A stretch of 64,000 nt of DNA from Gemmatimonadales bacterium (GCA_035702425.1 DASSQQ010000087.1:12143-76142), one strand, 5' to 3'; counted from the first letter of the stretch, positions 1-38,466 are shown. Numbers and translations: made by a program. Notes: generated by a model not told the origin, from the letters alone.

Positions 1-45
1 CTGGCGCTCTCGCCTTGACTGGAAGGCGGAGCGTCCGCCGACCCG

Positions 46-1059
46 CTAGCCCTCGTGCCCCTCCCGCCACATCTCGGCCAGCGCGCGCACCGTGCCCGGC
101 GCGTTTCCCTCGGCCCGGTTGTTCGCCAAAATGAACGCTTCGAGCCGCCGCCGCTGCGCTTCCGCGATCAGCCGCAACAAGTCTCCCCGCAACTCCGGGT
201 TCGGCTCCTGCACCCGGTCGTAGGGCCGGAAGCGCTCCACCGCGTCCGCGTAGCGCCGCCCCGGCCGTAACAGCACCCGCGCCACCGTGAACGGCGCCGG
301 AAACACGAACGAGAGCTGCAGCTGCTGGCCGATGGTCGGCATCTCGGTCCAGGAGTTGAACACGTGCGCCACCTGGTGGCGCTTCAGCACCTCCCCGTGG
401 AGGGGATGCAAGAGCTCCGCGTTCCGGAGCTCGACCCCGTACCGGAACTCGGCCGGCAGCTCGGTGAAGAAGCGATCCAGCTCCTCCGCCCACTCGCCGG
501 GGCCGGGGAGGTCGCGCCCCCGCATCGCCTGAAACTCGAACACGAAACAGCCGGCGTGATCGCGGAAGACGCGGGAGTACGGGAGCAGCACCGCGTCCTT
601 GAAGAGCTGCGCGTTCAGGAAATCGGGATTCCTCGTCCCCGCGTCCTTCCCCCACTTCGGATCCTTGTTGAAGCGCCGAGCGGTGATCCGGTCCCAGACC
701 TTGCTCACGCAGGGGAAGCCGGGCGGGAGCGCTTTCGCGTACGCGGCGAGCGTTTCTTCCGACGGCGGATCGTAGAAGGCGCTGTCGATCCCCACGGTGC
801 GGAAGAGCGGATAGCGCGCGTATTCCTCCAGCCGTTTCGCAGGTTGAGGACCGCGGTAGGGCCGGTGATAGACGTCCCCCGCCCAGCCGTCGTAGGTCCA
901 GGTGGAAGTGCCGAAACGGATCGCGGGCGGGAGCGAGCCGGCGAGCGCGACCAGGTCGGGGCGCGGAGGCGGGAGCGCCTCGGGGGCGTCGAAGAGAGAG
1001 GGTTGCTCGCGCCGCGGCATTCTGGCTTTGACTATGCCCATCAAGGCCCGATCCGTCAA
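46..1059 (-). CDS. DUF72 (UPF0759) family protein
   Basis: 337-aa track ORF. The FGTSTWTYDGWAGDVY-type N-terminal motif and the length are typical of DUF72. Codons are GC3-rich. The overlapping + strand ORFs are Arg/Pro-rich shadows. Confidence 0.8.
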   Translation of the reverse strand: MTDRALMGIVKARMPRREQPSLFDAPEALPPPRPDLVALAGSLPPAIRFGTSTWTYDGWAGDVYHRPYRGPQPAKRLEEYARYPLFRTVGIDSAFYDPPSEETLAAYAKALPPGFPCVSKVWDRITARRFNKDPKWGKDAGTRNPDFLNAQLFKDAVLLPYSRVFRDHAGCFVFEFQAMRGRDLPGPGEWAEELDRFFTELPAEFRYGVELRNAELLHPLHGEVLKRHQVAHVFNSWTEMPTIGQQLQLSFVFPAPFTVARVLLRPGRRYADAVERFRPYDRVQEPNPELRGDLLRLIAEAQRRRLEAFILANNRAEGNAPGTVRALAEMWREGHEG

Positions 1060-1138
1060 AAGGTTAGGCGGATGATCCAGGCATCTTGCGGCCTTTTGTG
1101 GCTTCGGGATATATTCGGGCCCCCGAGGAAATCTGTCA

Positions 1139-2431
1139 ATGCCTCAAGCGTCCCGGCGTCCCCCGACCAGCACCCTCGCCGCGTGCTGCTGGATTCCGCT
1201 CTTCGCCCTGCGCTGCGAAGAAGCGCGGCGGCCGGAGCTCGCGGGACTGCCGCTCGCGATCCTCTCCCCCGACGACGCGCGGCGGGTCTGGCAGGTCTCG
1301 CCCCTCGCCCGCCGCTCCGGGGTGCGCGCCGGTCTCACCGTGAGCCAGGCGATCGGTCTCTGCCCCGCGCTCACCCTGATCGAACCCGATCCGGTCCATT
1401 ACGACGAGCGCTTTTCCGCCCTCCTCGCGCGGCTCTCCAACGTCAGCCCCGTGGTCGAGCCTCAGGAGCTGGGGCGGGCGTTCGTGGGGAGCGACGGGAT
1501 GGAAGGGATTTACGGCGGGCCGGAGCGGTTCGTCGAAGCCGTCAAACGCGGAATGCGGAACGCGGAACGCGGAACAGAAACGGAAAGCCCGATCGCATGT
1601 TCCGCGTTCCCACTTCCCCGTTCCGCGTTTCGGATAGGTTGGGGCGCTGGCAAGTTCACCGCCTGGGTCGCCGCCACGCGCGCCAAACCCGGCGCGGCGG
1701 TGATCGTCCCGCCCGGTGACGAAGCGCGATTCCTCGCGGGCCAGCCGATCGCCGTCCTCCCGCTCGACCCCGACACTCACCGCCGGCTCCGCCGCCTGGG
1801 CGTGAACACCCTGGGCAAGCTCGCGGCGCTCCCCGAAGAAGCCGTGGTCTCGCAGTTCGGAAAACCGGGGCGCCGGATCTGGCGGCTCGCGGCGGGCCGG
1901 GCGGTCGAGCCCGTGGTGGGACGGGTGCTCCCGGAGCCGATCGTGGTGTCGCTCGCGTTCTTCACGCCGGTCGCGGGAGAAGAGCTCCTGCTCGCGTCCC
2001 TGCGCCAGCTCCTCGCCCGCGCCCTCGCCTCCCCGCGGCGCATCGGATGGCGGGTGCAAACGGCGCGGGCTCGGGCCGAGCTGGAACAGGGAACCTCCTG
2101 GCTCGCCGAGGTGACCCTCAAGGATCCCACCGCGGACCGGGAGCGGATTCTGGCGCCGCTCCGGGTACGGCTGTCGCAATCGCCGCCCGCGGGCGCGGTG
2201 GAGCGGCTCACGGTGGAGTTCACCGCCTTCGCGCCCGGGACCACCGAGCTGCAGCTCTTCGCGCGGGACGCCACCGCCGCCGCGCGCGCGGGCCGCCGCC
2301 GCGCCCTCCGCGCCGCCACCGAAGAGATCCGCCTGAAGCTGCGGCGCACTTTTCTCTATCACGTGATCGAAGTCCAGCCCTGGTCCCGCCTGCCGGAGCG
2401 GCGTTACGCGCTGATCGATTATGAGCCATAA
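1139..2431 (+). CDS. imuB: ImuB-like inactive Y-family DNA polymerase (mutasome subunit)
   Basis: 430-aa ORF with Y-family polymerase-like layout. The N-terminus reads ..AACCWIPLFALRCEE.. where DinB has its catalytic acidic residues, which is an ImuB hallmark. It lies directly upstream of dnaE2. A C-terminal ELQLF resembles a clamp-binding motif. It carries an in-frame heptamer hairpin at 1545-1629. Confidence 0.75.
   Translation: MPQASRRPPTSTLAACCWIPLFALRCEEARRPELAGLPLAILSPDDARRVWQVSPLARRSGVRAGLTVSQAIGLCPALTLIEPDPVHYDERFSALLARLSNVSPVVEPQELGRAFVGSDGMEGIYGGPERFVEAVKRGMRNAERGTETESPIACSAFPLPRSAFRIGWGAGKFTAWVAATRAKPGAAVIVPPGDEARFLAGQPIAVLPLDPDTHRRLRRLGVNTLGKLAALPEEAVVSQFGKPGRRIWRLAAGRAVEPVVGRVLPEPIVVSLAFFTPVAGEELLLASLRQLLARALASPRRIGWRVQTARARAELEQGTSWLAEVTLKDPTADRERILAPLRVRLSQSPPAGAVERLTVEFTAFAPGTTELQLFARDATAAARAGRRRALRAATEEIRLKLRRTFLYHVIEVQPWSRLPERRYALIDYEP
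1545..1629 (+). repeat. Heptamer-built palindromic element, copy in imuB (in frame)
   Basis: Sequence: aacgcggaa tgcggaa cgcggaa cgcggaa ca / gaaacggaaagcccgatcgcatg / ttccgcg ttcccac ttccccg ttccgcgtt. The outer 9 nt pair perfectly and the arms are about 32 nt. It is translated as ..NAERGTETESPIACSAFPLPRSAF.. Confidence 0.8.
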
Positions 2432-2438
2432 AACCAAA

Positions 2439-2467
2439 GGCGTGGTGCGTAATGCGTGGTGCGTTGG
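2439..2467 (+). repeat. Heptamer tract (half element) in the imuB/orf94 spacer
   Basis: Sequence ggcgtgg tgcgtaa tgcgtgg tgcgttgg covers the orf94 start codon at 2452. It uses the same unit as the left arm of the 2731-2816 element. Its first 9 nt (ggcgtggtg) are the exact reverse complement of 2800-2808. Confidence 0.6.
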
Positions 2468-2736
2468 CAATGTCTGACCGGCTCCGCGCGATCAACGTCC
2501 CGCAACGGGTGGAGGTCGAGGTGGACGCGGCCGGCAATCCGGTGACGGTGGCTCGGTCCGCCGGCCCGTCGGTCCGCCGGTCCGTCGAGGTGGTTCTTGA
2601 ATCCTGGCGGGTGGACGACGAGTGGTGGCGGCGTCCGCTCACGCGCACCTACTACGAGCTGCTGCTCGAAGGAGGACATCACGTCGTGCTGTATCGGGAT
2701 CTCAACACCCACGAGTGGTGGATGCAGAAACCATAA
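2452..2736 (+). CDS. Small conserved-looking hypothetical protein inside the imuB-dnaE2 cassette
   Basis: 94-aa GC3-rich ORF that exactly fills the gap between the imuB stop (2431) and the dnaE2 start (2811). The C-terminus is Trp-rich (ESWRVDDEWWRRPLTRTYYELLLEGGHHVVLYRDLNTHEWWMQ). An alternative ATG lies at 2470. Confidence 0.6.
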   Translation: MRGALAMSDRLRAINVPQRVEVEVDAAGNPVTVARSAGPSVRRSVEVVLESWRVDDEWWRRPLTRTYYELLLEGGHHVVLYRDLNTHEWWMQKP

Positions 2737-2816
2737 AAACACCATGCGTAGTGCGTGGTACGTGGTTGGTTCCGACATGACCGCGCGCTACGCACCACCC
2801 ACCACGCCTTATGGCC
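2731..2816 (+). repeat. Heptamer-built palindromic element filling the orf94/dnaE2 spacer
   Basis: The element runs from ccataa.. to ..ttatgg. The stem is gcgtggtacgtggt (2753-2766) paired with accacccaccacgc (2794-2807), giving 12 of 14 bp. The left end contains the orf94 TAA and the right end contains the dnaE2 ATG. Confidence 0.75.
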
Positions 2817-5800
2817 TACGCCGAGCTCCACTGTCACTCCGCCTTCTCGTTCCTGGATGGCGCGTCGCTCCCCGAGCAGCTGGTGCTCACGGCGCGGGAG
2901 CTGGGGTACGGCGCCCTCGCCCTCACCGACCGGAACGGGCTCTACGGCTCGATGGCCTTCGCGCACGCGGCGAAGCGGCTCGATCTCCAGCCCATCACCG
3001 GCACCGACGTCACGCTGACGGACGGCGCGCGCGTCACCCTGCTCGCCGAAACGCCGCCGGGCTACGCCAATCTCTGCCGGCTCCTCACCGAGACCCACCT
3101 GTCCCGCGCCGATCGCCGCGATCCCCGGCTCGACTTCGCCTCGCTCGAAGCGCGGCACGAGGGGCTGATCGTGCTCTCCGGCGGCCGGGACGGGCTCCTC
3201 CCCCGCGCCCTCGCGGCCAGCCGCTCCGGCGCCCGCCGGCTCGCCGAGCGCTGCCGCGCGGTGTTCGGGCGGCACGGATGTTACGTCGAGCTGCAGCGCA
3301 ACCGGGTCCGCGGCGACCTCACGCTCACCCGCGCGCTCGCGGATCTCGCCGATGCCGCGGGGCTCGACGTGGTGGCCACCGGCAACGTGCTCTACCACCG
3401 GCGGGAGCGGCACCGGCTGCACGACGTGCTGGTGGCGATCCGCCAGCGCACCACGCTCGACGGCTCCCACACCGTGCGCCAGCCCAACTCCGAGTTCGCC
3501 CTGCGCCCGCCGGAAGAAATGGCGGAGATCTTTTGCGACCGCCCCGATGCCGTCCGCCGCACCGACGAAATCGCGGCCCGCTGCCGCGCCTTCGACCTCA
3601 CCAAGGACCTGGGCTACGGATTCCCCGATTTCCACGGCGCGGCAAGCACGCCCGCCCCCCAGGCCCTGGCCGAGCTCTGCCGGGCGCGCTTCGAGGAGCG
3701 CTACCCGCCCGACTCGGTGCACCGCGTGGAAGCCGAGCGGCGCCTCGCCGAAGAGCTGCGGCTGATCGAGCATCACCGGCTCTCGGGATTTTTCCTGGTC
3801 TATCACGACCTCTTCGACCTCGCGCGCGAAGTGGCGGCCGACGTGCGGCGCGGCACCCGCCGCGCGATGGGAGGCCTCCTCCCCGGCCGGGGGCGCGGCT
3901 CCTCGGTCTCCTCCGTGGTGTGCTACCTGCTCGGCCTCTCCCACGTGGATCCCGTCGCCTGCCATCTCTTCATCGGCCGCTTCCTGAACGAAACCCTCGC
4001 GTCGGTCCCCGACATCGATCTCGATTTCCCCCGCGAGATCCGCGAGGAGCTGATCCGGCGGGTCTACAAACGTTACGGCGACGAGCACACCGGGCTGGTC
4101 TGCTCCTATCCCACTTACCGCCTGCGCTCCGCGGTGCGGGAGATCGGCAAGGCGCTCGACCTCCCGCCCGGAGAGCTGGAACAGGTCGCCCGGCTCGCGG
4201 ACCACCGCTCGGCGGGCGGCCTGCGCGAGGAATTGCAGGAGCTCCCGGGATTCCGGGACCGGGTGGACGCGCCGCTTTGGCGGGAGCTGGTGGAGCTGGC
4301 CGAGGAGATCGCGGGACTCCCGCGCCACATCTCCCAGCACGTGGGCGGGATGATCATCTCCAGCCGCCCCCTGGTGGAAATCGTGCCGCTCGAGCGCGCC
4401 GCGATGGAAGACCGGGTGCTCTGCCAGTGGGACAAGGATTCCTGCGACGACGCGCGCTTCATCAAGATCGATTTCCTGGCGCTGGGCATGCTCTCCCTGG
4501 TGGAGGAATGCGTGGAGCTCGTCGCCAGGAAAGAAGGCCAGCCGCCCGATCTCTCGCGCATCGACTTCGAGGACCCCGCGGTCTACGATCGCATTTGCGC
4601 CGGGGACACGGTGGGGCTCTTTCAGATCGAGAGCCGCGCCCAGATGCAGATGATCCGCCGCACCCGGCCGCGAAACCTCGAGGACCTCGCGGTGGAAGTG
4701 GCGATCGTGCGGCCGGGACCGATCGTGGGCGGCGCGGTGAATCCGTACGTGCGCCGGCGCGAAGCCCAGCGCGCGGCGCGCGCCAAGGGGCTCCCTTACG
4801 AACCGCCGCTCGATCATCCCCTGCTGAAAGAGGCGCTCACCGAGACCCTGGGCGTGATTCTCTATCAGGACCAGGTGCTGCAGGTCTGCCAGGCGCTCGC
4901 GGGATTCACGGCGGGCCAGGCGGAAGCCCTGCGGCGGGCGATGAGCCGCCGCCGCTCCCGGGAGCTGATGGGCGGATTCTGGGAGGAATTTCGCGCCGGC
5001 GCGATGGCGCGCGGGGTATCGGAGAAGACCGCCGAGCGGGTCTTCGCGCAGGTGATCGCGTTCTCGGAGTTCGGGTTTCCCAAGTCGCACGCGGCGGCGT
5101 TCGGGCTCCTCGCCTATCAGTCGGCGTGGCTCCGGCACTATCACCCGGTCGAGTACTACGTGGGACTCTTCAACAACCAGCCGATGGGATTTTACTCGCT
5201 CGATTTTCTGGGCCGGGACGCCAAGCGCAACCGGGTGGACATCCGGCTGCCCGACCTGAACGCGAGCGACGTGTGGTGCACGGTGGAGCAAGAGACGGGA
5301 GGCGAGAGACGAGAGGCGCACGCGTTGCGGATCGGGCTCGGGTTCATCAGGGACTGGAGCGAAGAAACCGCGACGGCGGCGGTGCTGGAGCGGGAGCGGA
5401 ACGGCCCCTACCGCAGCCTCGGCGACTTCGTGCGCAGAGCGCCGGCGGGATTGAATCGTACCGCGATCGAGAATCTGGCCTGGGTGGGCGGGTGCGACGG
5501 GTTCGGCCTCACCCGGCGGGAAGTCCTCTGGCAGATCGGGCTCTGGCTCCCGTCGGAAGCGGCGCGGAACGAGAAGAGAGTGCGGCGCCAGCTCGAGCTG
5601 CCGCTCGATCATCCGCACGAGCGACTCCGCTTCACCGGCGTGGGCGAGAGCGACCGTCTTCTCGCCGAGTACGCGATGCTCGGCTTCGCGGCGAGCGGGC
5701 ATCCGCTCTCACTGGTGCGGGAATCATTGCCCGGGCGCCTGGTGCTCTCCGACCGGCTCCCCGGTCTCGAGCACGGCGTCCGGGTGGAGGTGGCGGGCCT

Positions 5801-6152
5801 GGTGGTGGCGCGCCAGCGGCCGGAGACCGCCAAGGGAATCGTGTTCGTTCTGCTGGAAGACGAGCGGGGAATGGTGAACGTGATCGTCCGGCCCGACGTC
5901 TACGCCAAATGCCGCGTGGCGGTGCGCGGCGAGCCGTTCCTGCACGTGATCGGCAAGCTCGCGAAGGACGACGGGACGCTGAACGTGCTGGCGGAGGAAG
6001 TGCGGGGACTGCAGGTCAATTGTGGATTGCCGAATGCGGATTGTGGATTGGAAAGCCCGGCCGGCGAATCCGCGATCCGCAATCCGCAATCGCCAATGTC
6101 GTTGCTCCGCTCCCTGCGCCAGGTGGCGCCGGACAGCAAGGACTGGGGCTAG
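2811..6152 (+). CDS. dnaE2: Error-prone DNA polymerase DnaE2 (ImuC)
   Basis: 1113-aa ORF. N-terminal PHP domain ([17 protein letters not shown]), Pol III alpha core motifs, and a size and gene context typical of DnaE2. It carries an in-frame heptamer hairpin 18 codons before the stop. Confidence 0.95.
6019..6097 (+). repeat. Heptamer-built palindromic element, copy in dnaE2 (in frame)
   Basis: Sequence: attgtgg attgccg aatgcgg attgtgg attgg / aaagcccggccgg / cgaatcc gcgatcc gcaatcc gcaatcg ccaat. 26 of 33 arm positions are complementary. It shares the central GGAAAGCCCG with the imuB copy. Translated as [27 protein letters not shown]. Confidence 0.8.
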
Positions 6153-7048
6153 CCCCCCACCCGCTCCTCCCACTCCTCGAGCGAGCGGGGCCAGTCGTCC
6201 TTCAGCAAGCGCGACAGCGACCGGTCCGCCAGCACCTTCCCTCCGGTCTGGCAGGTGGCGCAGTAGTTCATCTCGTTCTCGGCGTAGCGCACCCGCTGTA
6301 CCGGCGAGCCGCAAACCGGGCAGGGCCGCTTGTACCTCCCGTGTACCGCCATCTCCTCCCGGAACGCGGTCACTTTGTCGGGGAACCCGTCCCCGGCTTC
6401 CGCCGAAAGCCGCGCGATCCAGCCGGTGAGCGTGGCCCGCGTCGCCGCGTGCAGGCGGTCGAGATCGGCATCGGACATCGTGCCGGTGAGCGCGAAGGGC
6501 GAGAGCTTCGCGGCGTGGAGAATCTCGTCCGAGTAGGCGTTGCCTACGCCGGAGAGAATGTGCGGATCGGTGAGCGCGCGCTTCAGGGTGTGGTTCTCGC
6601 GGCGCAGCGCGGCGCGGAATTCCGCGGCCGTCGCCTCCAGCACCTCGAGTCCGCCCGCCGAGAGCGCGCGCAGCGCCTCGTCCCCGCGCACCAGATGGAG
6701 AGATGCGCGCTTCTTGCCCGACGCTTCGGTGAAGAGCAGAGTTCCGGAGGCGAAATCGAACGCGGCGAGGCCGATTTTCCCGGGCACCTTGGTCTGGGGC
6801 GGCTTCCAGCGCAGCCGCCCCGCGATCATCAGATGAATGACGAGAAAGAGATCCGGCTCGAGCGCGATCACGATGCGCTTGCCGAGGCGGGAGACGCCGG
6901 TCACGGTGCGCCCCGGCGCCGCGTCGAGCGGCGGCTCCACGCTCCGCACCAGAAACGGACTCGTGACCCGGACCCGCTCCAGGGTTCGCCCCACGATTCG
7001 CGGGCGCAGCGCTTCGAGATAGACCACGATGTCGGGAAGCTCGGGCAC
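6149..7048 (-). CDS. Fpg/Nei family DNA glycosylase/AP lyase
   Basis: 299-aa ORF. N-terminal MPELPD (catalytic Pro2/Glu3), an H2TH-like segment ([13 protein letters not shown]) and a C-terminal zinc finger (CPVCG...CATCQ). It lies immediately downstream of lhr on the same strand. Confidence 0.9.
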
Positions 7049-7077
7049 GAAGGGTTACGGCCCGCCGGAGTGGACGG

Positions 7078-10000
7078 TCAGCGTCTTCCGAGGTAGGCGC
7101 GCACCATCGGCGCCGGGCGGCCGCGGACCAGAGCGGTGCGGAGCGCGGGAGCGTCGTCGGGAGAGACGTCCACCAGGAACGCTTCCCCTTTCCCGCCGCC
7201 CCCTTCCCCCAGTTTCACGGCGACCGGGATCCCGTCGCGATAGAGAATCCGGTTCGACGCGATCGCCGTCACCGGCTCCCCCGGCGTGATGATGCCGACC
7301 AGGTTGAGCGGGTCCGCCGCCGAGAGCACCACGATCTCGCCCAGTCCCCCATCCCCGATCCCGGCCTCTCGCCTCACCGACCGCAGCAGCCCCACCGCCT
7401 CGCTCAGCGCGTACTGCTCGCCCGAGAATCCGCCGACGAACCGCCCGCCCCGGATCTCGCCCCGCGCTTCGAGCCGGCGGAAGACGCGCAGCACGTCGCG
7501 CCACGGCGGCAGCACGCTCTCCCGCTCGACCAGGCGCCGGAACACCACGCCGTAGCGCCGGAGCAGCTGCCAGGCCACCGCCTCCGCCAGCTGATCCTCG
7601 GGGAGGAGCGACGACTTCCCGGCGAGCGACCAGCGCCCCGCGGTGTCCACGCCGAACGGCGCGACCTTCCCGCGCCGCCGCCGGAGATTCCCCACCGGGC
7701 GCCGGCGGTCGGAGGGCACGAGGAGCGCCCGGAGTCCGGAGAAGCTGTCCGAGGTGACCACGCCCCACGACACCAGCTCGCCCAGCCCTTTCTCCACTTC
7801 GGTGCGGAGGAGTCCGGTGGCGTTGACGAGGTCGCCGAAGAACGACGCGCCGCGTTCCCGGAGCGCCGCGAGCAGGGCGGCCGCTGAATGACTGAGAGAC
7901 AGCTGGTCGAGATCGGGTGGCGTGGCCAGTGCGCGCCATACGGCGCCTCGTTCCCGGCGGAACAGGGCGATCCGCGTCGACCTGATCGGTCCCGCCTTCC
8001 AGTTCCCCGTTCCTCGGTCGGCGGTCCGCGTTGTCTCCAGCTTCCCCCACGCGACTTCGCCGGAAAGACAGAGCCCATCGAGCCACAGCGGATCGTATTC
8101 CGCCATCCGCGCCGGGAGGACGTCGGTCTCCCACGCGGCGGCGGGAAGTTCGTAGCCGTCCAGCAGATCGAGCACCGCCGCGAGCCCCTCCGGCCCCTCG
8201 GCGCGGGTCGCGGGCGACACCCGCTGCCACCGGAACAGGAAGCGCATGAAGTCCGCCGCGGTGACGGGCTCGATTTCCTTGCGCAGGCGGTCCAGGGTGT
8301 AGCGGTGAATCCGGGCGAGCAGCCTCCGCTCGCACCACTCGACTCCCTCCCGCCCGGGCGTGAACCGGCCCCGCAGCACGAACCCCTCGTGCTCGAGCGC
8401 GCCCAGGCCGAAGGTCACGTCGCTCTCGGCAAGTCCGAGCGCGGCGGCGATCTCGGCCACCGTGGTGGGCCCGACGATCTCGAGCCGGCCCCGCACCAGC
8501 TCCCGGATCGCGTCCTCCCGGGTCCAGGTCTTGGCGCGTTCCCGCTCCGGCGCGAGGACGCCCGCCGGCTCCCAGGTCACGCCGGGATACGCCGCCTCCG
8601 CGAGCGGCAGCCGCTCCGCCGCGACCCAGAGCCCGGGCGCGACCTGCAACCGCGCGGCCCGTCCCGCGCCCACCAGTTCGGCGAACAGGGCGCCCCATTC
8701 CGCGCTCCGCGCCCCCCGTTCCGCGCTCCACGTTCCGCGTTCCGCGTTGGGTATCGCCCCCGCCACCATCAACGCGTCGTGCAGCTCGTCCGCGTTTTCG
8801 GGATCGGGCCACGCTTCCTCTTTCACCCGGAGGATCGCGTCCGTGTCGAGCTTCCCGAACTCCTCGGCGGTCTTCACGTCGAGCGAGCGCCGGGTCACCA
8901 CCGCCTGGGTCCGCCGCTCCTCGAGCGGCGCGTCGTCCAGGAAGGCGTAGGGCTTGGCGTTCAGCACTTCGTGCGCGAGCGGTGACGGCTCGGTCACGTC
9001 CCGCGCCGCGAGCCGCACTTCCCCCCGCTCCATCCGCTCCAGCACCTGCACCAGGCCCGCGAGATCCATCGCTTCGGTGAGGCAATCGTGGATGGTCTGC
9101 TGGACCAGCGGGTGATCGGGAATCTCGCGATCGCCCACCAGATTTTCGGGACAGGCGAGCTGGTCGGGGAAGACCGCCGCCGAGAGATCCTCGGCCTGCA
9201 TCCGCTGGAGCGGCGTGGGGACCTTTTTCCCGCCGAGGCTGCGCAGCACCGCGAGCGCGCGGGTCGCGTTCCAGCGCCAGCGGCTCTGGAACATCGGCGC
9301 GTCGAGCATCGCCTGCACCAGCAGATGCTCGGCGGTCTGCGGCTTCAGGTACTGGAACACGTCTTCCAGCGCGAACGAATGATGGGGCCCGAGCGAGATC
9401 ACGATCGCGTCGTCGGTCGCCGCGGCCTGCAGCTCGAAGTTGAAGGACCGGCAGAACCGCGTCCGCAGCGCCAGCCCCCACGCCTTGTTCACCCGGGCGC
9501 CGAAAGGCGCGTGCAGGACCAGTTGCATCCCGCCCGCCTCGTCGAAGAAGCGCTCGAGGACGATGGACTCCTGGGTGGGAATGAGGCCCAGCGTTTTCTT
9601 CGTCGCCCCGAGGTACTCGACCAGCTGCCGGCCCGCCGCTTCCTGCAGTCCGGTCTCGCTCTCCAGCCAGGCGATGGCGCCGCGCTGGTCGTCGAGCCGG
9701 GTGTCCAGATCGGCGCGGAGCCGGGAAACTTCTTCGGAGAGCTCGACGGTGCGCGCCGGCGCTTCGCCCAGCCAGAACGGGATGGTGGGCGGCTGGCCCT
9801 GCGCGTCCGCCACCCGCACCTGCCCCGATTCGACCTTGGTGATCAGGTACGACGCGTTGCCGAGCTGGAAGATGTCCCCGGCCGAGCTTTCGATGGCGAA
9901 ATCCTCGTTGAGGGTGCCGACGAAGGTCTCGGTGGGCTCGAGGATGACGCGGTAGTCGCCGATGTCGGGAATCGCGCCGCCGGAGGTGATCGCGGCGAGC

Positions 10001-11448
10001 CGGGCCCCGCGCCGGGCCCGGAGCCGGCGGTTCACGCCATCATAATGAAGGTGGGCGCCGCGGCGGCCCCGCTTGGTGGTGAATCCCTCGGCCAGCATCT
10101 GCACCACGCCGTCGAACGTCGGGCGCGCGAGGTCGCGGTAGGGATACGCGCCCCGCACCATCGCGTAGAGGTCGTCCTCGCTCCACTCCTCGCAGGCGAC
10201 CGCCGCCACGATCTGCTGCGCCAGGATATCGAGCGGCCGCTCCGGAATGATCAGCCGGTCGAGCCGCCCCGCCCGGACCCCGCGGAAGAGCGCCGCGCAC
10301 TCGAGCAGGTCGTCCCGCGACAGCGGGAAGAGCCGCCCCTTGGGAATGGCTTCGAGGTGATGGCCGGAACGCCCCACCCGCTGCAGCAGGGTCGCGATGG
10401 CGCGCGGAGTCGAGATCTGGCAGACCAGGTCCACCGTCCCGATGTCGATGCCCAGCTCCAGCGACGCCGTCGCCACCAGCGCCTTGAGCTGGCCGCCCTT
10501 CAAGCGCGTCTCCGCGTCGAGCCGCTTCTCCTTGGAGAGCGATCCGTGATGCGAGGTGACGAACTCGGCGCCGATCCGCTCCGAGAGATGCATCGTCAGC
10601 CGCTCCGCCATCCGGCGGGTGTTCACGAACACCAGCGTGGTGCGGTGCTCGCCGATCAGCTGGGCCAGCCGGTCGTAGATCTCCTCCCACACTTCGTGCG
10701 CCATCACCGCTTCCAGCGGCGACGACGGGATCTCGATCGCGAGATCGAGCTCGCGCGCGTGCCCCGCGTCCAGGATTTCGGGGAGCGGGCGCCCGGCGCC
10801 GACCAGGAACCGCGCGATCTCCTCGATCGGCTTCTGGGTCGCCGAGAGGCCGATGCGCTGCACCGGCCGGCTGGCGAGGGCCTGCAGGCGCTCGAGGGTG
10901 AGCGTGAGGTGGCTCCCCCGCTTGTCGCGCGCCACCGCGTGGATCTCGTCCACGATCAGGGTGCGCACCGAGCGCAGCATCTCCCGCGCCCGCTCGGAGG
11001 TGAGGATGAGGTAGAGCGACTCCGGCGTGGTGACGAGGATGTGCGGCGGGCGCTTCAGCATCTCCTGCCGCTCGGCCGCCGGCGTGTCCCCGGTGCGGAC
11101 CAGGGTCCGGATTTCGATTGCCGGAAGGCCGAGCTGCGCCGCGCTCTGCGCGATCTCGGCCAGCGGCTCGGTGAGGTTCTTCTGGACGTCGTTGGAGAGG
11201 GCCTTGAGCGGCGAGACGTAGACCACCTGGATCTCGTCGGTCAGCGTGCCGGCGAGCGCCTGGCGGAGCAGCGAATCGATGGCGGCGAGGAAGGCCGCGA
11301 AGGTCTTGCCCGCGCCGGTGGGCGCCGCGATCAGCGCGTCTTTCCCCGCCTGGATGGCGGGCCAGGCGCGGCGCTGCGGCTCGGTGGGCTCGCGGAAGCG
11401 CTCGCCGAACCACTGCGCGACGGCCGGATGAAACCCCGACAAGGCCAT
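7078..11448 (-). CDS. lhr: Lhr-type large ATP-dependent DNA helicase
   Basis: 1456-aa ORF. Walker A motif AAPTGAGKT, a DEIH box, a helicase C domain and the long C-terminal extension typical of Lhr. It contains two in-frame heptamer tracts. Confidence 0.9.
7949..8034 (-). repeat. Degenerate heptamer element, copy 1 in lhr (in frame)
   Basis: The coding strand reads aacgcgg accgccg accgagg aacgggg aactgga aggcggg accgatc ... ctgttccgccgggaacg. It shares the terminal GGCGRAACAGGGCG and ..CCGCGTTG ends with the 8676-8750 copy. Peptide: [30 protein letters not shown]. Confidence 0.6.
8676..8750 (-). repeat. Tandem heptamer element, copy 2 in lhr (in frame)
   Basis: The coding strand reads aacgcgg aacgcgg aacgtgg agcgcgg aacgggg ggcgcgg agcgcgg aatgggg cgccctgttcgcc. 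The first 31 nt match the imuB copy's left arm at 28 of 31 positions. The peptide [25 protein letters not shown] has a 7-aa period. Confidence 0.75.
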
Positions 11449-11534
11449 GCTCGAATATAAGCTGCGGCCCGCGACGCAACCCTTTCGCCGGCCGGCGCAT
11501 CAGACCGTAGGTAACCCCTGCAAACGAGGGCACT

Positions 11535-12848
11535 ATGACCCGCTACTCCCGGCGTCCCCTCGCGCTTGCAGCCGTCCTGGCGCTCACCACTTCACCTCTC
11601 ACCGCGCAGCTCGATACCGCGGCCGGCGCGCAAGCGCTGGCGGAATTCGCCGCGGCCTGCGCCAGGGACGGCGGTGCCCTCTGGGGCCGGCCGCTCTGCG
11701 GCCCGCTGTCCCTGGTCGATCCGGCCACCCGCGCGGTCATCGCGAATCAGCCCGACTCCAATCATCTCCTCACGGCCTCGGGGTCGGTGTACGTGGGCCC
11801 GCTGCCGGCGGGCATCGTTCCCTCGAACACCGCGGTGACCTGGGGCGGCGTGCATTGGGCGATGGTGATGCTGCCCCTTCCGGCCGACCGCTTCTCGCGC
11901 ATCGAGCTGCTCGCCCACGAATCGTTCCACCGCATTCAGGCGGAGCTCGGACTTTCCTCGCCCGACGCGTCGAGCCCGCACCTGGACGAGCGGGATGGGC
12001 GGGTGTGGCTGAGACTCGAGCTCCACGCGCTGGCCGCGGCGCTCTCGTCCGGCGGATCGAGCGCCCGTGACGCCGCGCGTGACGCGCTCCTCTTCCGCGC
12101 CTATCGGCTCTCCCGCTACCGCGGCGCCGATTCCCTCGAGGCCAGGCTCGAAACGCAGGAGGGGCTGGCCGAATACACCGGCGCGAAGCTCGCCCTCGCC
12201 GCGACCGGCCTCTCCGACCAGCGTCTCGCGACCGAGCTCGCGGACTACGAAGGGCGGCCGACCTACGTCCGCTCCTTCGCGTACGCCACCGGTCCCGCGA
12301 TCGGGCTCCTGCTCGACCGCTACGCGCCGGATTGGCGAACCCGGGTCCGGCTGCGCCACGATCCGGCGGGCCTGCTCGCGCAGGCGCTCGGCTTCCGCGC
12401 CGACGACGGCCTCGAGCGGGAAGCGAAGTCGGCCGCGCGCGCCTACGGCGCGCCGGCGGTGATGTCCGCGGAAGACTCCCGCGCCACCGAGCGCGCCACC
12501 AGGCTCGCTGCGTACCGCGCCCGGCTGGTGGACGGACCGGTGCTGGTGCTGAAGCAGCGCGACCTGGGCTTCACCATGGACCCCAACACCCTGGTCCCCC
12601 TGGGCGACGCGGGCACGGTCTATCCGACCGGGACCTTCAAGGCCTCGTGGGGAACGCTCCAAGTCTCCGAGGGCGGCGCGCTGGTGAGTCCGGACTTCAC
12701 GAGCGTCGCGGTGGCCGCGCCCGCGGATACGGCGGGACAGACCCTTGCCGGAAACGGCTGGAAGCTGGAGCTGGCGTCGGGGTGGGTGGTGCGCAGGAGC
12801 GCCGGACACGCCGGCAGCTACGAGGTGGTGGCGGCCCAGCAGCCGTAG
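11535..12848 (+). CDS. Secreted hypothetical protein with HExxH motif (putative metalloprotease-like)
   Basis: 437-aa ORF with an N-terminal signal peptide (LALAAVLALTTSPLTAQ) and an HESFH motif. I recognise no closer family. Confidence 0.6.
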   Translation: MTRYSRRPLALAAVLALTTSPLTAQLDTAAGAQALAEFAAACARDGGALWGRPLCGPLSLVDPATRAVIANQPDSNHLLTASGSVYVGPLPAGIVPSNTAVTWGGVHWAMVMLPLPADRFSRIELLAHESFHRIQAELGLSSPDASSPHLDERDGRVWLRLELHALAAALSSGGSSARDAARDALLFRAYRLSRYRGADSLEARLETQEGLAEYTGAKLALAATGLSDQRLATELADYEGRPTYVRSFAYATGPAIGLLLDRYAPDWRTRVRLRHDPAGLLAQALGFRADDGLEREAKSAARAYGAPAVMSAEDSRATERATRLAAYRARLVDGPVLVLKQRDLGFTMDPNTLVPLGDAGTVYPTGTFKASWGTLQVSEGGALVSPDFTSVAVAAPADTAGQTLAGNGWKLELASGWVVRRSAGHAGSYEVVAAQQP

Positions 12849-14063
12849 CTACGCCAGCGCGGCCTCGAGTGAGGCGCCGCGGCTCGCGGCGATCCGCTCG
12901 ATCGTTTCACCGATCTTGTTGTTGGGGGTGGAGGCGCCCGCGGTGATCCCCACGCGCAGGGGACCCGGGGCGAGCCACCCCTTTTCACGCCGCTCCTCCT
13001 TGGCGCCGGAGGGCTGGAAGCGGATCGTCCCCGCTTCGGGGTCGATGCAGGCCGCGTCCTCGATGTGATAGGTCGGCACCCGGCCCTCGCAGATCGCGGC
13101 GAGGTGGGTGGTGTTGCTCGAGTTGTACCCGCCGATCACCACCATCAGGTCGAGCGGCTCCTCGATCAGCTTCAGCACCGCGTCCTGGCGCTCCTGGGTG
13201 GCGGAGCAGATGGTGTCGAAGGTGCGGAAGTGCTGGGCCAGCGCCTCGCGGCCGAAGCGCGCCGCCATGCTCTTTTCGATCTCGCCCGCGATGGCGAGCG
13301 ACTCGTTGGAGAGCATCGTGGTCTGATTGGCGACGCCGACGCGGGAGAGATCGCGGTCCGGATCGAAACCCGGGGAAGCCGCGCGCGCGAACTTCTCGAG
13401 GAATGCGTCCCGCTGGCCCCGCCCCTCGATGTACTCGCACACGACTCGCGCTTCCGCCATGTCCCGCACCACCACGTAGCGGCCGCCGGGATACTTGGTC
13501 ACCTGGCTGGCGGTGGCCTTGGTCTCTTCGTGGTAGTACTTGCCGTGGATGATCGCGGTGTAGCCGTCCTTGGCGTAGGCCTCCACCCGCTTCCAGACGT
13601 TGAGTACCGAGCCGCAGGTGGTGTCCACCAGCACGCACCCCAGCCCCCGCAGGCGCTCGAAGGCCCGCACCGTCACGCCGAAGGCGGGGAGGAGTACCAC
13701 GTCGTCCGGGGTGACGCCCGAGAGGTCGAACTCGCCGCCGTCGGGCCGGTGCAGGAACCGCACGCCCATGGCCTCGAGCTTGGCGTTCACGTGCGGATTG
13801 TGGATGATCTCGCCCGCGAGGAAGATCCTCTTGTCGGGAAACTTGGTGCGGGTCTCGTACGCGTACTCGACCGCGCGATCCACGCCGTAGCAGAACCCGA
13901 ACTCGCGCGCGAGACGGAAGGTGAGATCGCCCACGGTGAGCGTGTGGTCCCGCGCCCGCACCGCGTCCACCACCCGGCTGTGGTAATCGGCGACGAGGGC
14001 GCCTTCGATGGCGCCCTTCAGGCCGAAGCCTTTCCGGAAGTAGGTCTGCTCCACGGGGATCAA
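12849..14063 (-). CDS. ispH: 4-hydroxy-3-methylbut-2-enyl diphosphate reductase (long, cyanobacterial/plant-type IspH)
   Basis: The three conserved Cys contexts are present: GFCYGVDRAV, VDTTCGSV and FDTICSATQERQ. The upstream 235 codons of the 639-aa track ORF overlap the real Gfo/Idh/MocA gene, so the likely start is TTG 14063 or GTG 14054, overlapping that gene's stop. Confidence 0.88.
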   Translation of the reverse strand: MIPVEQTYFRKGFGLKGAIEGALVADYHSRVVDAVRARDHTLTVGDLTFRLAREFGFCYGVDRAVEYAYETRTKFPDKRIFLAGEIIHNPHVNAKLEAMGVRFLHRPDGGEFDLSGVTPDDVVLLPAFGVTVRAFERLRGLGCVLVDTTCGSVLNVWKRVEAYAKDGYTAIIHGKYYHEETKATASQVTKYPGGRYVVVRDMAEARVVCEYIEGRGQRDAFLEKFARAASPGFDPDRDLSRVGVANQTTMLSNESLAIAGEIEKSMAARFGREALAQHFRTFDTICSATQERQDAVLKLIEEPLDLMVVIGGYNSSNTTHLAAICEGRVPTYHIEDAACIDPEAGTIRFQPSGAKEERREKGWLAPGPLRVGITAGASTPNNKIGETIERIAASRGASLEAALA

Positions 14064-24224: not shown

Positions 24225-25793
24225 GTGCTCCGACTAGGCCGCCGCCCCTGCCGGGCGCTCGCGATCGTCGCCGGGGGACTCGCCGCCGGCGTGAGTCCCC
24301 TCCTCGCGCAACGCGCGCATCAGCTCGAGGTCGGCGCCTTCGGCTCCTACAACAGCTTCGACGGCGCCTACCATCTCAAGGATCACATCGGCGAGGGCGC
24401 GCGGGTCGGATTTTTCCTGCTGGGCCACACCCTCGGCCTCGAGCTCGACGGCGGCTACGTGCACCCGGTCGCCGATTCCGGCACCGGCAGCGCCCAGGTC
24501 TACACCGGCAGCGCGAGCCTCGTCTTCAATTTCGTCGCCGGACATTCCAGCGTGTACGTCCTCGGCGGCTACACCCGGCTCAATTTCCGCGGCAACAGTC
24601 AATTCACCGACGCCGCGTTCCACGTCGGCTACGGCGACCGCATCCTTCTGGGCGACCGCCTCGCCCTGCGGCTCGAAGCCCGCAACATCTTCACGCCGAC
24701 CAGCAAGCTCCCGGTCTCGTCGCCCCCCAAGTGGGCGATGCACATCCAGGGCACCGCCGGCGTGTCGGTGCTGCTGTTCGGACACTTCGGGCCTCCCCCC
24801 GACGCCGACTCGGACGGCGTCGCGGACAAGCACGACGCCTGCCCCGCGACCCCGCGCGGCGCCACAGTCGATGAGCGCGGGTGCCCGCACGACGCGGACG
24901 GCGACGGCGTCTACGACGGAATCGACAAGTGCCCCAGCACGCCCGCGGGTGCCAAGGTGGACGTCGCCGGGTGTCCCACCGACGCCGACAAGGACGGCGT
25001 CTTCGACGGACTCGACCGCTGCCCCAACACGCCCCTCGGCGTGAAGGTGGACGTCGCCGGGTGCCCGGTGGACTCGGACAAGGACGGCGTGACCGACGAC
25101 CTCGACAAGTGTCCCAATACGCCGGTCGGCGCCAAGGTGGACGCCACCGGTTGCCCCATCGACACCGACAAGGACGGCGTGCCGGACGGGATCGATCAGT
25201 GCGTGGCGACGCCGTTCGGCGCCACCGTGGACGCGACCGGGTGCCCCCTCGATTCCGACAAGGACGGGGTCTACGACGGGCTCGACCAGTGTCCCAACAC
25301 GCCCGCGGGCACCCAGGTGGACCCGCGCGGCTGTCCCGCCAATCTCGACACCGACAAGGACGGGGTCCTGGACTCCGTCGACAAGTGCCCCAACACCCCG
25401 CCCGGCACCAGCGTGGACGCCACCGGCTGTCCGATTCTCTTCACCACCAAGCGCACCGCGCTGGTGCTGCGGGGAGTGAACTTCGAGGTGGGACGCTCCG
25501 CCCTGACCGCCGACTCGTACGGCGTGCTCGACGGCGTGGCCGCGTCGCTGGTCGCCAATCCGGAGATCCGGATCGAGATCGCGGGTTACACCGACAACAC
25601 CGGCTCGGCGGCGGTGAACACCCGGCTCTCCCAGGCGCGCGCGGCCGCGGTGCGGGCCTACCTCGCGGCCAAGGGCGTGAGCCCGGACCGCATGGTGGCG
25701 CGCGGTTACGGACCGACCCATCCGCTCGCGCCCAACACCACGGCGGCGGGGCGCGCCCGGAACCGCCGGGTCGAACTGCACCAGCTCCCGTAG
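24225..25793 (+). CDS. OmpA-family outer membrane protein with thrombospondin type-3 (Ca-binding) repeats
   Basis: 522-aa ORF with a signal peptide and an N-terminal beta-barrel-like part. It has about 8 repeats of DxDxDGVxDxxDxCPxTPxGxxVDxxGCP. The C-terminal OmpA domain reads IAGYTDNTGSAAVNTRLSQARA...NRRVEL. Confidence 0.85.
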   Translation: MLRLGRRPCRALAIVAGGLAAGVSPLLAQRAHQLEVGAFGSYNSFDGAYHLKDHIGEGARVGFFLLGHTLGLELDGGYVHPVADSGTGSAQVYTGSASLVFNFVAGHSSVYVLGGYTRLNFRGNSQFTDAAFHVGYGDRILLGDRLALRLEARNIFTPTSKLPVSSPPKWAMHIQGTAGVSVLLFGHFGPPPDADSDGVADKHDACPATPRGATVDERGCPHDADGDGVYDGIDKCPSTPAGAKVDVAGCPTDADKDGVFDGLDRCPNTPLGVKVDVAGCPVDSDKDGVTDDLDKCPNTPVGAKVDATGCPIDTDKDGVPDGIDQCVATPFGATVDATGCPLDSDKDGVYDGLDQCPNTPAGTQVDPRGCPANLDTDKDGVLDSVDKCPNTPPGTSVDATGCPILFTTKRTALVLRGVNFEVGRSALTADSYGVLDGVAASLVANPEIRIEIAGYTDNTGSAAVNTRLSQARAAAVRAYLAAKGVSPDRMVARGYGPTHPLAPNTTAAGRARNRRVELHQLP

Positions 25794-38384: not shown

Positions 38385-38466
38385 CGTTCCGCGCGTCCCG
38401 CGTCATTCCGGCAGGGGCTGCCCCCGGGACGCTTCGGGACCGCCAGACGGACACGAAACGAGGACG
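38385..38466. repeat. Heptamer-built palindromic element in the lon/kinase intergenic region
   Basis: Sequence: cgttccgc gcgtccc gcgtcat tccggcaggggctgcccccgg gacgctt cgggacc gccagac ggacacg aaacgag gacg. The left units (GCGTCCC/GTTCCGC) face the right units (GGGACGC). The central stem is ttccgg-ca-ggg / ccc-ccggga. Confidence 0.6.

Follow-up and report, generated by a model that had tools for sequence, protein, structure and literature searches.

The stretch of DNA analysed here (hereafter the window) covers 64,000 nt of a Gemmatimonadales metagenome-assembled genome (MAG; GCA_035702425.1, DASSQQ010000087.1:12143–76142) and has a GC content of 70.9%. Near its left end lie the mutasome genes imuB and dnaE2 with a small open reading frame (ORF), orf94, between them, and lhr and a glycosylase gene are arranged convergently with imuB-orf94-dnaE2 (Table 1). 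Inside and between imuB, orf94, dnaE2, and lhr are tracts of tandem 7-nt units, a part of which face a reverse-complement array; these tracts are the subject of this study. The window Lhr matches the solved 1508-aa chain of 7LHL, deposited under the name 'ATP-dependent DNA helicase', with an E value of 7e-195, and we take 7LHL to be a mycobacterial Lhr. The order of lhr followed by the fpg/nei-family glycosylase gene is also that of the mycobacterial lhr-nei2 operon. The 3' ends of dnaE2 (6152) and nei (6149), which lie on opposite strands, overlap by 4 nt.

Table 1. Genes and repeat tracts in the left part of the window (TRF, Tandem Repeats Finder; TRF intervals in parentheses)
Feature	Position	Strand	Evidence or remark
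DUF72 gene	46–1059	−	
imuB (catalytically inactive Y-family polymerase homologue), host gene	1139–2431	+	Pfam IMS domain, E 9e-16; ImuB 100% identical to a Gemmatimonadales MAG protein (NCBI)
imuB hairpin, G-rich arm, (AACGCGG) ×4.4, encodes RNAERGT	1544–1576	+	TRF (1545–1575); inverted repeat of 33 nt, 85% complementary; fold z −5.8
imuB hairpin, C-rich arm, (TTCCGCG)-type with irregular TTCCCAC unit, encodes SAFPLPRSAF	1598–1630	+	TRF (1599–1629); inverted repeat; fold
G-rich array (GCGTGGT), 6 nt past the imuB stop, overlaps the orf94 start; left arm of the long-range pair	2437–2467	+	TRF (2440–2464)
orf94, small conserved ORF, 94 codons, WRIDDEWWR motif	2452–2736	+	Present in 79 of 80 loci; inside the long-range pair
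orf94-internal tract, period 8/16, CGGTCCGC, at the recurrent Orf94 aa 30–40 site	2553–2587	+	TRF: period 16, 94% matches; period 8, 3.9 copies
Second G-rich array, directly past the orf94 stop; local alternative partner of 2784–2810	2743–2772	+	Period-7 tract; local hairpin
C-rich array, directly abutting the dnaE2 ATG (2811); the long-range pair's right arm	2784–2810	+	
dnaE2 (error-prone DNA polymerase), host gene	2811–6152	+	NCBIfam NF004225, 942.9 bits vs cut-off 939
Single-arm purine-rich array (AGAGACG/GGAGGCG), DnaE2 aa ~826	5288–5320	+	TRF (5291–5318); period-7 tract
DnaE2 C-terminal tail hairpin, G-rich arm (ATTGYGG)	6019–6052	+	TRF (6019–6050); fold z −3.3
DnaE2 C-terminal tail hairpin, C-rich arm (ATCCGCA)	6063–6097	+	TRF (6067–6097); period-7 tract; nhmmer E 5.7e-4
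fpg/nei-family glycosylase gene, downstream of lhr	6149–7048	−	Pfam Fapy_DNA_glyco, H2TH, zf-FPG; no period-7 tract in the window tract scan
lhr (large helicase-related), host gene	7078–11448	−	NCBIfam PRK09751 and PRK13767
Weak tract, G-rich on the sense strand (GGGGGAAGGGGGCGGCGGGAAAGGGG), Lhr aa ~1413; canonical G-quadruplex motif	7182–7210	−	TRF score 30
Degenerate single-arm array, Lhr aa ~1140 (copy 5 of the first-pass annotation)	7997–8032	−	Period-7 tract
Single-arm array, (AACGCGG) ~×7 on the lhr sense strand, Lhr aa ~900–917	8698–8756	−	TRF (8698–8748), 7.3 copies; nhmmer E 0.004

Period-7 tracts in the window

Period-7 tracts were defined as at least four heptamer units with at least 70% self-match, and first-order Markov simulations of the window, in which the dinucleotide content was preserved, served as the null model. 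The window contained 17 such tracts compared with 3.65 ± 2.1 in the simulations, and the same test showed no comparable excess at periods 5 and 8. The periodicity reported in a first-pass annotation of this DNA is thus above that of shuffled controls. Ten of the 17 tracts fall within 1539–8756, and the other seven look like GC-rich noise. TRF detected the arrays independently (Table 1), and an nhmmer search across the window with ten unit types found arms solely between 1545 and 8748. The arrays are imperfect (63–94% matches in TRF) and 4–7 units long, and this genome alone carries the unit types AACGCGG, GCGTGGT, ATTGYGG, and AGAGACG.

In the folding test against shuffled sequences, hairpins were obtained for the imuB region (1545–1629; −51.4 kcal/mol, z −5.8), the spacer between orf94 and dnaE2 (2737–2816; −37.5 kcal/mol, z −4.1), and the DnaE2 tail (6019–6097; −41.6 kcal/mol, z −3.3). 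In contrast, the two lhr regions folded no better than shuffles (7949–8034, z −0.9; 8676–8750, z +0.2), the latter containing a one-armed array of about seven units at 8698–8750. The first-pass annotation had listed seven copies of an approximately 80-nt hairpin element. Three of them are true hairpins, but the two lhr copies are one-armed or degenerate, and the seventh copy (38385–38466), which has no periodicity, no nhmmer match, and a folding z of −0.5, was ruled out as a member of the family. The copy at 2439–2467 is one arm rather than a truncated copy; its 27-nt partner, 81% complementary, lies 320 nt off at 2784–2810. Three tracts were missing from that list, namely 5288–5320 in dnaE2, 2553–2587 in orf94 (8-nt period), and 7182–7210 in lhr. 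A search of positions 1–12000 with Rfam 15 at permissive thresholds returned a single, spurious match, which was to a plant microRNA model and below threshold (25 bits vs a gathering score of 73).

The copies appear to be homologous, as had been proposed. The imuB left arm and the reverse complement of 8720–8750 are identical at 28 of 31 nt, and the imuB and dnaE2 copies have the centre GGAAAGCCCG in common, both of which were checked by eye. In addition, an irregular unit, TTCCCAC/TTCCGAC, is found at the equal place in the right arms of the imuB and dnaE2 hairpins. As judged from the sequences, the existence of a related family of tracts is supported. All tracts are read through in frame, and the earlier statement that the intragenic copies keep their host ORFs open holds for every intragenic tract in the window. 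The common frame and the related peptides, which had been offered as evidence, are an arithmetic necessity and hence uninformative: as 7 and 3 are coprime, (AACGCGG)n encodes the cyclic heptapeptide NAERGTR in whichever frame it is read, and the complement encodes SAFRVPR.

Distribution of the tracts in 80 Gemmatimonadales species

The loci of 80 Gemmatimonadales species (1.24 Mb in total) were fetched, and all period-7 tracts were mapped to genes. The tract density was 0.77 per kb in ImuB, 0.82 in Orf94, 0.38 in DnaE2, and 0.35 in Lhr, and it reached 8.5 per kb in the intercistronic DNA between imuB and dnaE2. The densities in DUF72 (0.045 per kb) and in the other flanking DNA (667 kb; 0.046 per kb) equalled the shuffle background. 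The concentration in imuB, dnaE2, and lhr, previously noticed in the window, is therefore strong across the 80 species. No arrays occur in the genes that separate dnaE2 from lhr, which are nei in the window and msrA, a hydrolase gene, and a TonB-like gene in locus L005. The background level in these intervening genes and in the 667 kb of flanks indicates that the effect is gene-specific and not regional.

At this locus, 235 of the 275 tracts lie within coding sequence, and the tracts recur at about ten orthologous sites in imuB, orf94, dnaE2, and lhr. In the protein coordinates of the window, these sites are amino acids (aa) 130–170 of ImuB (73 tracts in the 80 loci); aa 30–40 of Orf94, where the period-8 tract of the window corresponds to heptamer arrays in the orthologues; aa 820–845 and 1070–1099 of DnaE2; and aa ~220, 900–920, ~1140, ~1360, and ~1410 of Lhr. 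The site at DnaE2 aa ~826 holds 25 orthologous tracts of GGGAAAC, GGGAGCA, or GGGATGC, all without a partner. Arrays were found in 18 species at Lhr aa ~900–917, in 16 species at Lhr aa ~1140 (GGAACGC), and in 6 species at Lhr aa ~1410 (GGGGAGC); the lineage-specific status of the lhr tracts is judged solely by presence or absence among 44 species.

The tracts fall into two classes. In the paired class, 62 of the 73 ImuB tracts have a reverse-complement array 4–97 nt away, 49 of the 57 tracts in the DnaE2 tail have such a partner, and the arms of the long-range pairs lie 250–350 nt apart around orf94. The arms of paired tracts are always complementary, with folds of −40 to −80 kcal/mol. The unpaired class consists of DnaE2 aa 826, all lhr sites, and most orf94-internal tracts. 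On the sense strand, its units (GGGAAAC, GGGAGCA, GGGATGC, CGGAACG, CGGAATG, and CGGATTG) are rich in purines and repeat GGA or GGG at 7-nt intervals, Lhr aa 220 being the exception. This purine richness is common to two oppositely transcribed units, and a filter for hydrophilic loop peptides would equally yield it. Runs of at least three G residues occur in the GGGA-type arrays at DnaE2 aa 826, at Lhr aa 1410, and in orf94, whereas the GGAACGC, GGAATGC, and GGATTGC arrays have GG doublets only; the number of units per array is about 4–5. A C-rich heptamer tract, CTGACAC/ACACCYG, is located at one orthologous spot 7–9 kb upstream of imuB (L016, position 964; L026, 1715; L027, 1597; L028, 122; L046, 2500; L036, 853). 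The same unit is found at Lhr aa ~220 and represents a second unit family with the opposite strand bias.

The array pair around orf94

orf94 occupies the usual place of imuA beside imuB and dnaE2. Its product, which gave no Pfam or NCBIfam match, is characterized by the motifs DRLRALNVPQRV...WRIDDEWWR...LFEDLxTGEWFxQ in 79 of the 80 loci (L009–L088). Among the 56 species that have no junction arrays, 48 show an overlap of orf94 with the 3' end of imuB, the DRL motif of orf94 being at a constant offset of −19, and in about 15 species without junction arrays the orf94 stop codon overlaps the dnaE2 ATG by 1–4 nt. Overlapping stop and start codons are the classic arrangement for translational coupling.

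The left, G-rich junction array begins −10 to +2 nt from the imuB stop (18 species), and the right array ends about −9 to +3 nt from the dnaE2 start (21 species; position 2810 in the window, where the ATG starts at 2811). A new finding is that orf94 is exactly enclosed by one such pair, which reaches from the imuB stop as far as the dnaE2 start and occupies cistron junctions that originally overlapped. From these positions, the junction pair can bury both initiation regions and juxtapose the imuB stop and the dnaE2 start. Inversion of the orf94 segment was found in none of the 79 loci (consensus assemblies); it is always on the operon strand.

Evolution of the tracts in place

In the alignment of ImuB orthologues with 70–76% identity, the repeat segment is at the equal place in all, and some orthologues carry another unit on both arms (LRIVDCGL... 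vs MRNAERGT...SAFPLPRSAF in the window). The DNA between two anchors conserved in ImuB is 108–234 nt long among the species, and its shortest forms are array-free; one arm or a remnant is present in some, and in one clade the units here measure 8 nt. The length of the ImuB segment was not seen to vary in strict 21-nt (three-unit) steps. ImuB-family proteins with 30–48% identity are without the segment of about 28 aa, in agreement with the earlier suggestion that it is a lineage-specific insertion. The tracts grow, shrink, and switch their unit in place. In ImuB-like proteins of distant phyla (P0145 and P0204), unrelated low-complexity or palindrome-like inserts are found in the equivalent loop; examples from other taxa are PPAPFPMWEGG... 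and duplicated GGASEN.DEVAP motifs. The ImuB loop appears to be a general hot spot for insertions.

Four frameshifts were found in 202 gene copies, and three of them are exactly on unpaired arrays: in dnaE2 of L012 (14132–14184) and L061 (~13970–14000) and in lhr of L050 (~13299–13326). No imuB copy was shifted in the 80 loci. The coincidence of three of the four frameshifts with arrays indicates that the arrays are hot spots either of indels or of assembly errors. An independent assembly, L008, ends within the array bearing the L012 frameshift. In the window strain, the arrays are identical in three other assemblies and are therefore not hypervariable on short time scales. The pair L005 and L006 was considered as a natural strain comparison and was dropped, L006 being a different strain past position 13343.

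Unit type and recombination

Native arms pair better than chimeric arms, both in ImuB (−59 vs −47 kcal/mol) and in the DnaE2 tail (−49 vs −34 kcal/mol), confirming that both arms change together as first noted in the window. The pairing energy was −53.7 kcal/mol for native arms, −47.1 kcal/mol for arms of different sites in one genome, and −41.3 kcal/mol for orthologous arms from other genomes. Five unit types were distinguished (GGAACGC, GGAATGC, GGATTGC, GGAGTGC, and GGCGTGC). ImuB has the same type as the DnaE2 tail in 14 of 26 genomes (expectation 5.4), as the junction in 14 of 21 (expectation 6.1), and as Lhr aa 900 in 8 of 13 (expectation 2.2), and the types are scattered over the ImuB tree.

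Loci L013 and L032 are 93.6–94.2% identical over 15 kb, with a 4-fold divergence of 0.10–0.16, and a drop in identity, to 0.63–0.77, is confined to the two hairpins (ImuB and DnaE2 tail) and the two junction arrays. At these array sites L013, which is of the ATT type at all four, is 0.82–0.93 identical to distant ATT-type lineages, and the likeness takes in the site-specific loops and about 90 nt of adjacent coding DNA. This pattern led us to conclude that type switching is a local allelic replacement by homologous recombination and not the result of point mutation. The stems are about 90% complementary (median 19 of 21) despite a difference at 4-fold sites of up to 0.45 between species, which means that some process maintains them. 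The coordinated evolution of the unit type and the concentration of the tracts in these genes are new.

Occurrence elsewhere and relation to known repeats

A metagenome scan for GGAAYGCGGAAYGCGGAAYGCGG found at least 80 loci, and the following figures apply among the matches listed. These loci have 36–72% GC. A tblastn search with ImuB, DnaE2, and Lhr on the 80 metagenome loci listed, which carry (GGAAYGC)3, gave no match, which indicates that the arrays are not specific to these genes in nature. Many of the matches carry a complementary array 20–60 nt downstream, mostly in non-coding DNA near gene ends, and the arm on the 5' side is the purine-rich one in about 45 of 50 pairs. Some are from Gemmatimonadales, among them hflX (L139, 1–1263), in which a G-rich arm (EMRNAERGTRN) and a C-rich arm (SAFRVPTS) are 45 codons apart. 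Both arms are retained, with unit variants, in homologues with 83–99% identity (P0271–P0390); they flank the NKxD region of the GTPase domain. Arrays are also present in a selB-like gene and in the 5' regions of mnmA and trpB. Several hairpins per contig, each with its own unit (GACAAGC, CAGACAT, AGCACAC, GCTGCAA, and GGTGTCA), were seen in L093, L094, L153, and other metagenome loci, and some genomes are evidently rich in heptamer hairpin repeats.

The first-pass annotation knew of no described family with such an architecture in high-GC bacteria, but Xanthomonas (65% GC) has 70–75 convergent GGGAATC array pairs per genome (Rehm et al. 2015, PMC4692102). The heptameric repeats of Xanthomonas (GGGAATC) and Nostoc (GGGGAYT) are G-rich, prefer four units, and form G-quadruplexes (G4) in vitro (PMC4692102). 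Their positions are conserved while length and sequence vary, and no function has been assigned; they occur genome-wide at random gene classes, over-represented in non-coding DNA and under-represented in ORFs (PMC4692102). The architecture is thus already known, and by analogy the present tracts are the Gemmatimonadales counterpart of these repeats and convergent pairs. Both have tandem 7-nt units with a G-rich strand, about four units per array, and convergent stem-loop pairs in high-GC hosts, and both keep equal genomic positions in related species with varying length and sequence. Unlike the Xanthomonas and Nostoc repeats, the tracts described here lie in frame within genes and are concentrated in one operon and lhr, and their unit varies between sites and genomes but is matched within a genome. 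Heptanucleotide simple sequence repeats (SSRs) are cited as over-represented in prokaryotes (Mrazek et al. 2007, as referred to in PMC4679880 and PMC4692102), and an origin by slippage, with a 7-nt slippage footprint of the polymerase, has been proposed for them (PMC4692102, PMC4679880).

The TAACTGA repeats of Beggiatoaceae are likewise tandem heptamers near start codons for which a role in translation and an origin by slippage have been suggested; they have stops in three forward frames, are nearly all intergenic, and form an inverted repeat only once (PMC4679880). The Gemmatimonadales units, unlike TAACTGA, are stop-free in six frames and translated. Rickettsia palindromic elements (RPEs) are reportedly in-frame palindromic insertions in ORFs. 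The present tracts resemble them in being palindromic, in frame, translated, located in permissive protein regions, and absent from distant orthologues. RPEs, however, are 100–150 bp long with a conserved full-length consensus and occur in many genes, whereas only the arms are common to the copies here, the loops are unique, hundreds of nt can separate the arms, and the sites are fixed among orthologues. With repetitive extragenic palindromic (REP) sequences and REPINs (Bertels and Rainey 2011, PMC3116915), the tracts share short hairpin repeats of a genome-specific type that evolves in concert at lasting fixed positions. REPINs are extragenic, have a conserved spacer, and are linked to RAYT (PMC3116915), whereas the tracts are intragenic, with spacers of 4–350 nt and arms of tandem units, and the Pfam scan of 24 window proteins showed no RAYT gene. 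As for MITEs, the miniature transposable elements with inverted repeats, inspection of the aligned sites found neither terminal inverted repeats beyond the arms nor target-site duplications. In Salmonella mutL, a 6-bp in-frame change of three perfect GCTGGC units has been demonstrated to convert (PMC2955026); that switch is similar in that slippage of tandem repeats in a mutability gene alters gene function, and differs from the 7-nt units, imperfect arrays, and rare, putative off-alleles found here.

Origin and possible function of the tracts

The account that we favour, though with somewhat less than even confidence, is that the tracts are heptanucleotide SSRs (one of them octanucleotide) at about ten fixed insertion-tolerant places, that they are driven by slippage, and that their stem-loops act in cis on mutasome expression. 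The tolerant places comprise loops of the proteins, the tail of DnaE2, and both cistron junctions within imuB-orf94-dnaE2. The part of this account that concerns the origin, namely SSR-type tracts at fixed tolerant sites that change size by slippage, stay complementary and matched in type through templated processes and recombination, and are translated, is well supported. Slipped-strand mispairing would create and resize the arrays, arm-to-arm templated correction and homologous recombination would preserve the complementarity, and a filter at the protein level would pass only stop-free versions whose length is a multiple of 3 and whose peptides are hydrophilic. The single-stranded stems, most plausibly in the operon mRNA, would then brake and couple mutasome synthesis in cis, and the pair bracketing orf94 would bury the initiation regions of orf94 and dnaE2, which were ancestrally coupled by overlapping stop and start codons. 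Such a brake or coupler, predicted from the sequences, is a real possibility but, taken by itself, less likely than not.

Several points weigh against the favoured account. The enrichment in these very genes exceeds what slippage and tolerance alone account for, and the control DNA that provides the background density is a resampling of 20–30 neighbouring gene families, not whole genomes. The lhr and DnaE2 aa-826 tracts are partnerless and are left unaccounted for by the stem-loop model. Many species, whole basal clades included, are without the imuB and junction arrays, which makes any function dispensable. That the junction arrays abut exactly on the stop and start codons agrees with a coupling device without being evidence for it, because insertion into a zero-length spacer would trivially give the same result. 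Furthermore, a selected RNA helix usually shows a preference for G.U over A.C, but the single stem mismatches are G.T in 27 cases and A.C in 33; there is no G.U preference on the sense strand and hence no signature of selection on the sense-strand RNA. The covariation of the arms had been described as the pattern expected of a conserved hairpin structure. With no G.U excess and a matching that is largely genome-wide rather than specific to arm pairs, it does not prove selection on the hairpin, and the case warns against taking arm covariation as proof of a selected RNA structure.

The main alternative is that the tracts are a functionless by-product of slippage and fold-back or template-switch copying, persisting where they are tolerated, through a locus-specific mutational process such as hairpin-induced breaks acting as recombination hot spots or a mutasome acting preferentially beside its own genes. 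We consider this a real possibility, if not a probable one. The missing bias of G.U over A.C, the patchy presence and absence over the tree, the frameshift alleles on arrays, and the recombination tracts centred on arrays all agree with it, as do the published proposal of a 7-nt slippage footprint and the unrelated low-complexity inserts in the equivalent ImuB loop of other phyla; the 5' position of the purine-rich arm in most of the pairs listed suggests a polar generating process. However, the background level in the genes between dnaE2 and lhr and in the 667 kb of flanks makes the effect gene-specific, complementary arms that stand 130–350 nt apart with functional coding sequence between them (orf94, hflX) are hard to obtain by fold-back copying, and type matching over four separately replaced tracts needs selection or a single dominant donor. 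A further alternative, which takes up the likeness to in-frame palindromic elements of Rickettsia noted in the first-pass annotation, is that of recent insertions of small mobile palindromic in-frame elements, RPE-like or REPIN/MITE-like. This is the worst fit and very improbable, even though dispersed copies have idiosyncratic units in common in unrelated contexts of Gemmatimonadales and other contigs, and in-frame tracts are present or absent among orthologues and absent from distant homologues. The ten sites are occupied alike across the 80 species of the order, the loops are unique in sequence and length (4–350 nt) with only the arms common to the copies, the arms can be 130–350 nt apart on either side of functional coding sequence, and single arms exist alone. 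Neither a target-site duplication nor a flanking direct repeat is visible by inspection in the aligned filled, short, and replaced sites, nor are there terminal inverted repeats beyond the arms; types switch through homologous replacement in which site-specific loops and adjoining coding DNA are exchanged as well; and none of the 24 window proteins scanned matches a transposase family in Pfam. On these sequence comparisons, the tracts do not behave as mobile elements.

A trans-acting factor has also to be considered. The arrays could be sites for a heptad-reading factor that co-evolves with the unit type and marks a regulon of the mutasome and Lhr; the candidates would be a protein reading 7-bp heptads in duplex DNA, an RNA-binding protein reading GGA every 7 nt, or a small RNA. 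The unit type is matched within a genome and different between sister species, arms of different sites in one genome pair better than orthologous arms, GGA or GGG recurs every 7 nt on the sense strand of unpaired tracts in two oppositely transcribed units, and the pairs are biased towards the convergent orientation. On the other hand, three or four unit types are possible in one genome (four in the window), the Lhr aa-1140 site remains GGAACGC regardless of the type elsewhere, and the arrays in hflX, the selB-like gene, and the 5' regions of mnmA and trpB show no DNA-damage theme. No candidate factor was found, no residue of Orf94, which might be a unit-specific reader, tracks the unit type, and a search for a perfect inverted-repeat operator common to imuB and lhr (77 and 9 loci, respectively) found none. 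We therefore think this explanation improbable, and the same holds for the broader claim that matching between arms, distant sites, and opposite units, together with set-wise switching, reflects a trans-acting reader or writer of heptamers. Such a reader or writer may be a co-evolving heptad-reading factor behind a hitherto unknown control layer, post-transcriptional or at the level of DNA, for the mutasome and Lhr, or the matching may be the slippage footprint of the ImuB-DnaE2 polymerase near its own genes; if true, the latter form would tie the bacterial excess of heptanucleotide repeats to one specific enzyme. To a contingency switch, in which dnaE2 or lhr would be reversibly silenced by a frame change when one 7-nt unit is gained or lost, giving mutagenic heterogeneity in the population, we attach very little weight. 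The frameshifts of dnaE2 in L012 and L061 and of lhr in L050, three of the four observed, coincide exactly with arrays, the L008 assembly breaks within an array, and repair genes offer a precedent for a repeat switch (PMC2955026), but off-alleles are rare (3 of 202 gene copies), imuB is shifted in none of the 80 loci, the arrays are imperfect and only 4–7 units long, those of the window strain are identical in three independent assemblies, and MAG assembly errors at repeats could mimic the signal. G4 or R-loop formation, in which G-rich arrays on the non-template strand or in mRNA would stall the transcription or translation of genes inducible by damage and C-rich partners would mask the G-rich arrays, seems similarly remote. 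The GGGAAAC, GGGAGCA, GGGATGC, and GGGGATC arrays, with 4–5 G-tracts, are canonical sense-strand motifs (DnaE2 aa 826, Lhr aa 1410, and orf94), and the related GGGAATC and GGGGAYT repeats form G4 in vitro with a preference for four units. The commonest units (GGAACGC, GGAATGC, and GGATTGC), however, contain GG doublets only, the window tract at DnaE2 aa 826 (AGAGACG) is a poor G4 motif, and the coding of hydrophilic loop peptides explains the purine-rich sense strand equally well.

The interest of the case lies in about ten hot-spot sites in just these genes across an order, with unit types matched between the sites. Of the long simple repeats in bacteria, heptanucleotide repeats are the most over-represented, and the present system is evolutionarily replicated, with ten sites, 80 species, and five unit types in genes that copy or unwind damaged DNA. 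Its handles are the junction arrays, inserted where cistrons once overlapped, the sister species whose differences are confined to the arrays, and the frameshift alleles on arrays. Should the arrays throttle or couple mutasome synthesis, an abundant soil phylum would have a new level of control over induced mutagenesis; should they be scars left by a local mutational process, the birth of repeats could be linked, in a testable way, to an error-prone polymerase or to hairpin-induced recombination.

Other features of the window

The sequence TATATTCG is common to the upstream regions of imuB (~1105–1115, about 30 nt before the ATG) and lhr (~11455–11465, about 6 nt from the ATG). It is probably a −10 box, and its distance of about 6 nt from the lhr ATG suggests a leaderless lhr mRNA. 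No perfect inverted-repeat operator shared upstream of imuB (77 loci) and lhr (9 loci only) was found.

The other 52 kb of the window encode ordinary housekeeping proteins, such as Lon, PFK, a Ser/Thr kinase, MCP, and an OmpA-family protein. An 851-aa ORF on the minus strand (16691–19246) gave a weak DEAD-box helicase match alone and has no heptamer arrays. Tandem repeats of other periods were seen in the gene for the OmpA-family protein (24878–25426), whose 90/180-nt repeats (5.8 copies) are thrombospondin type 3 repeats. The minus-strand ORF 59076–60575 contains 93-nt tandem repeats at 59272–59576 (about 2 copies, 73–79% matches) and a CATCGG hexamer run at 60279–60328 (8.3 copies).

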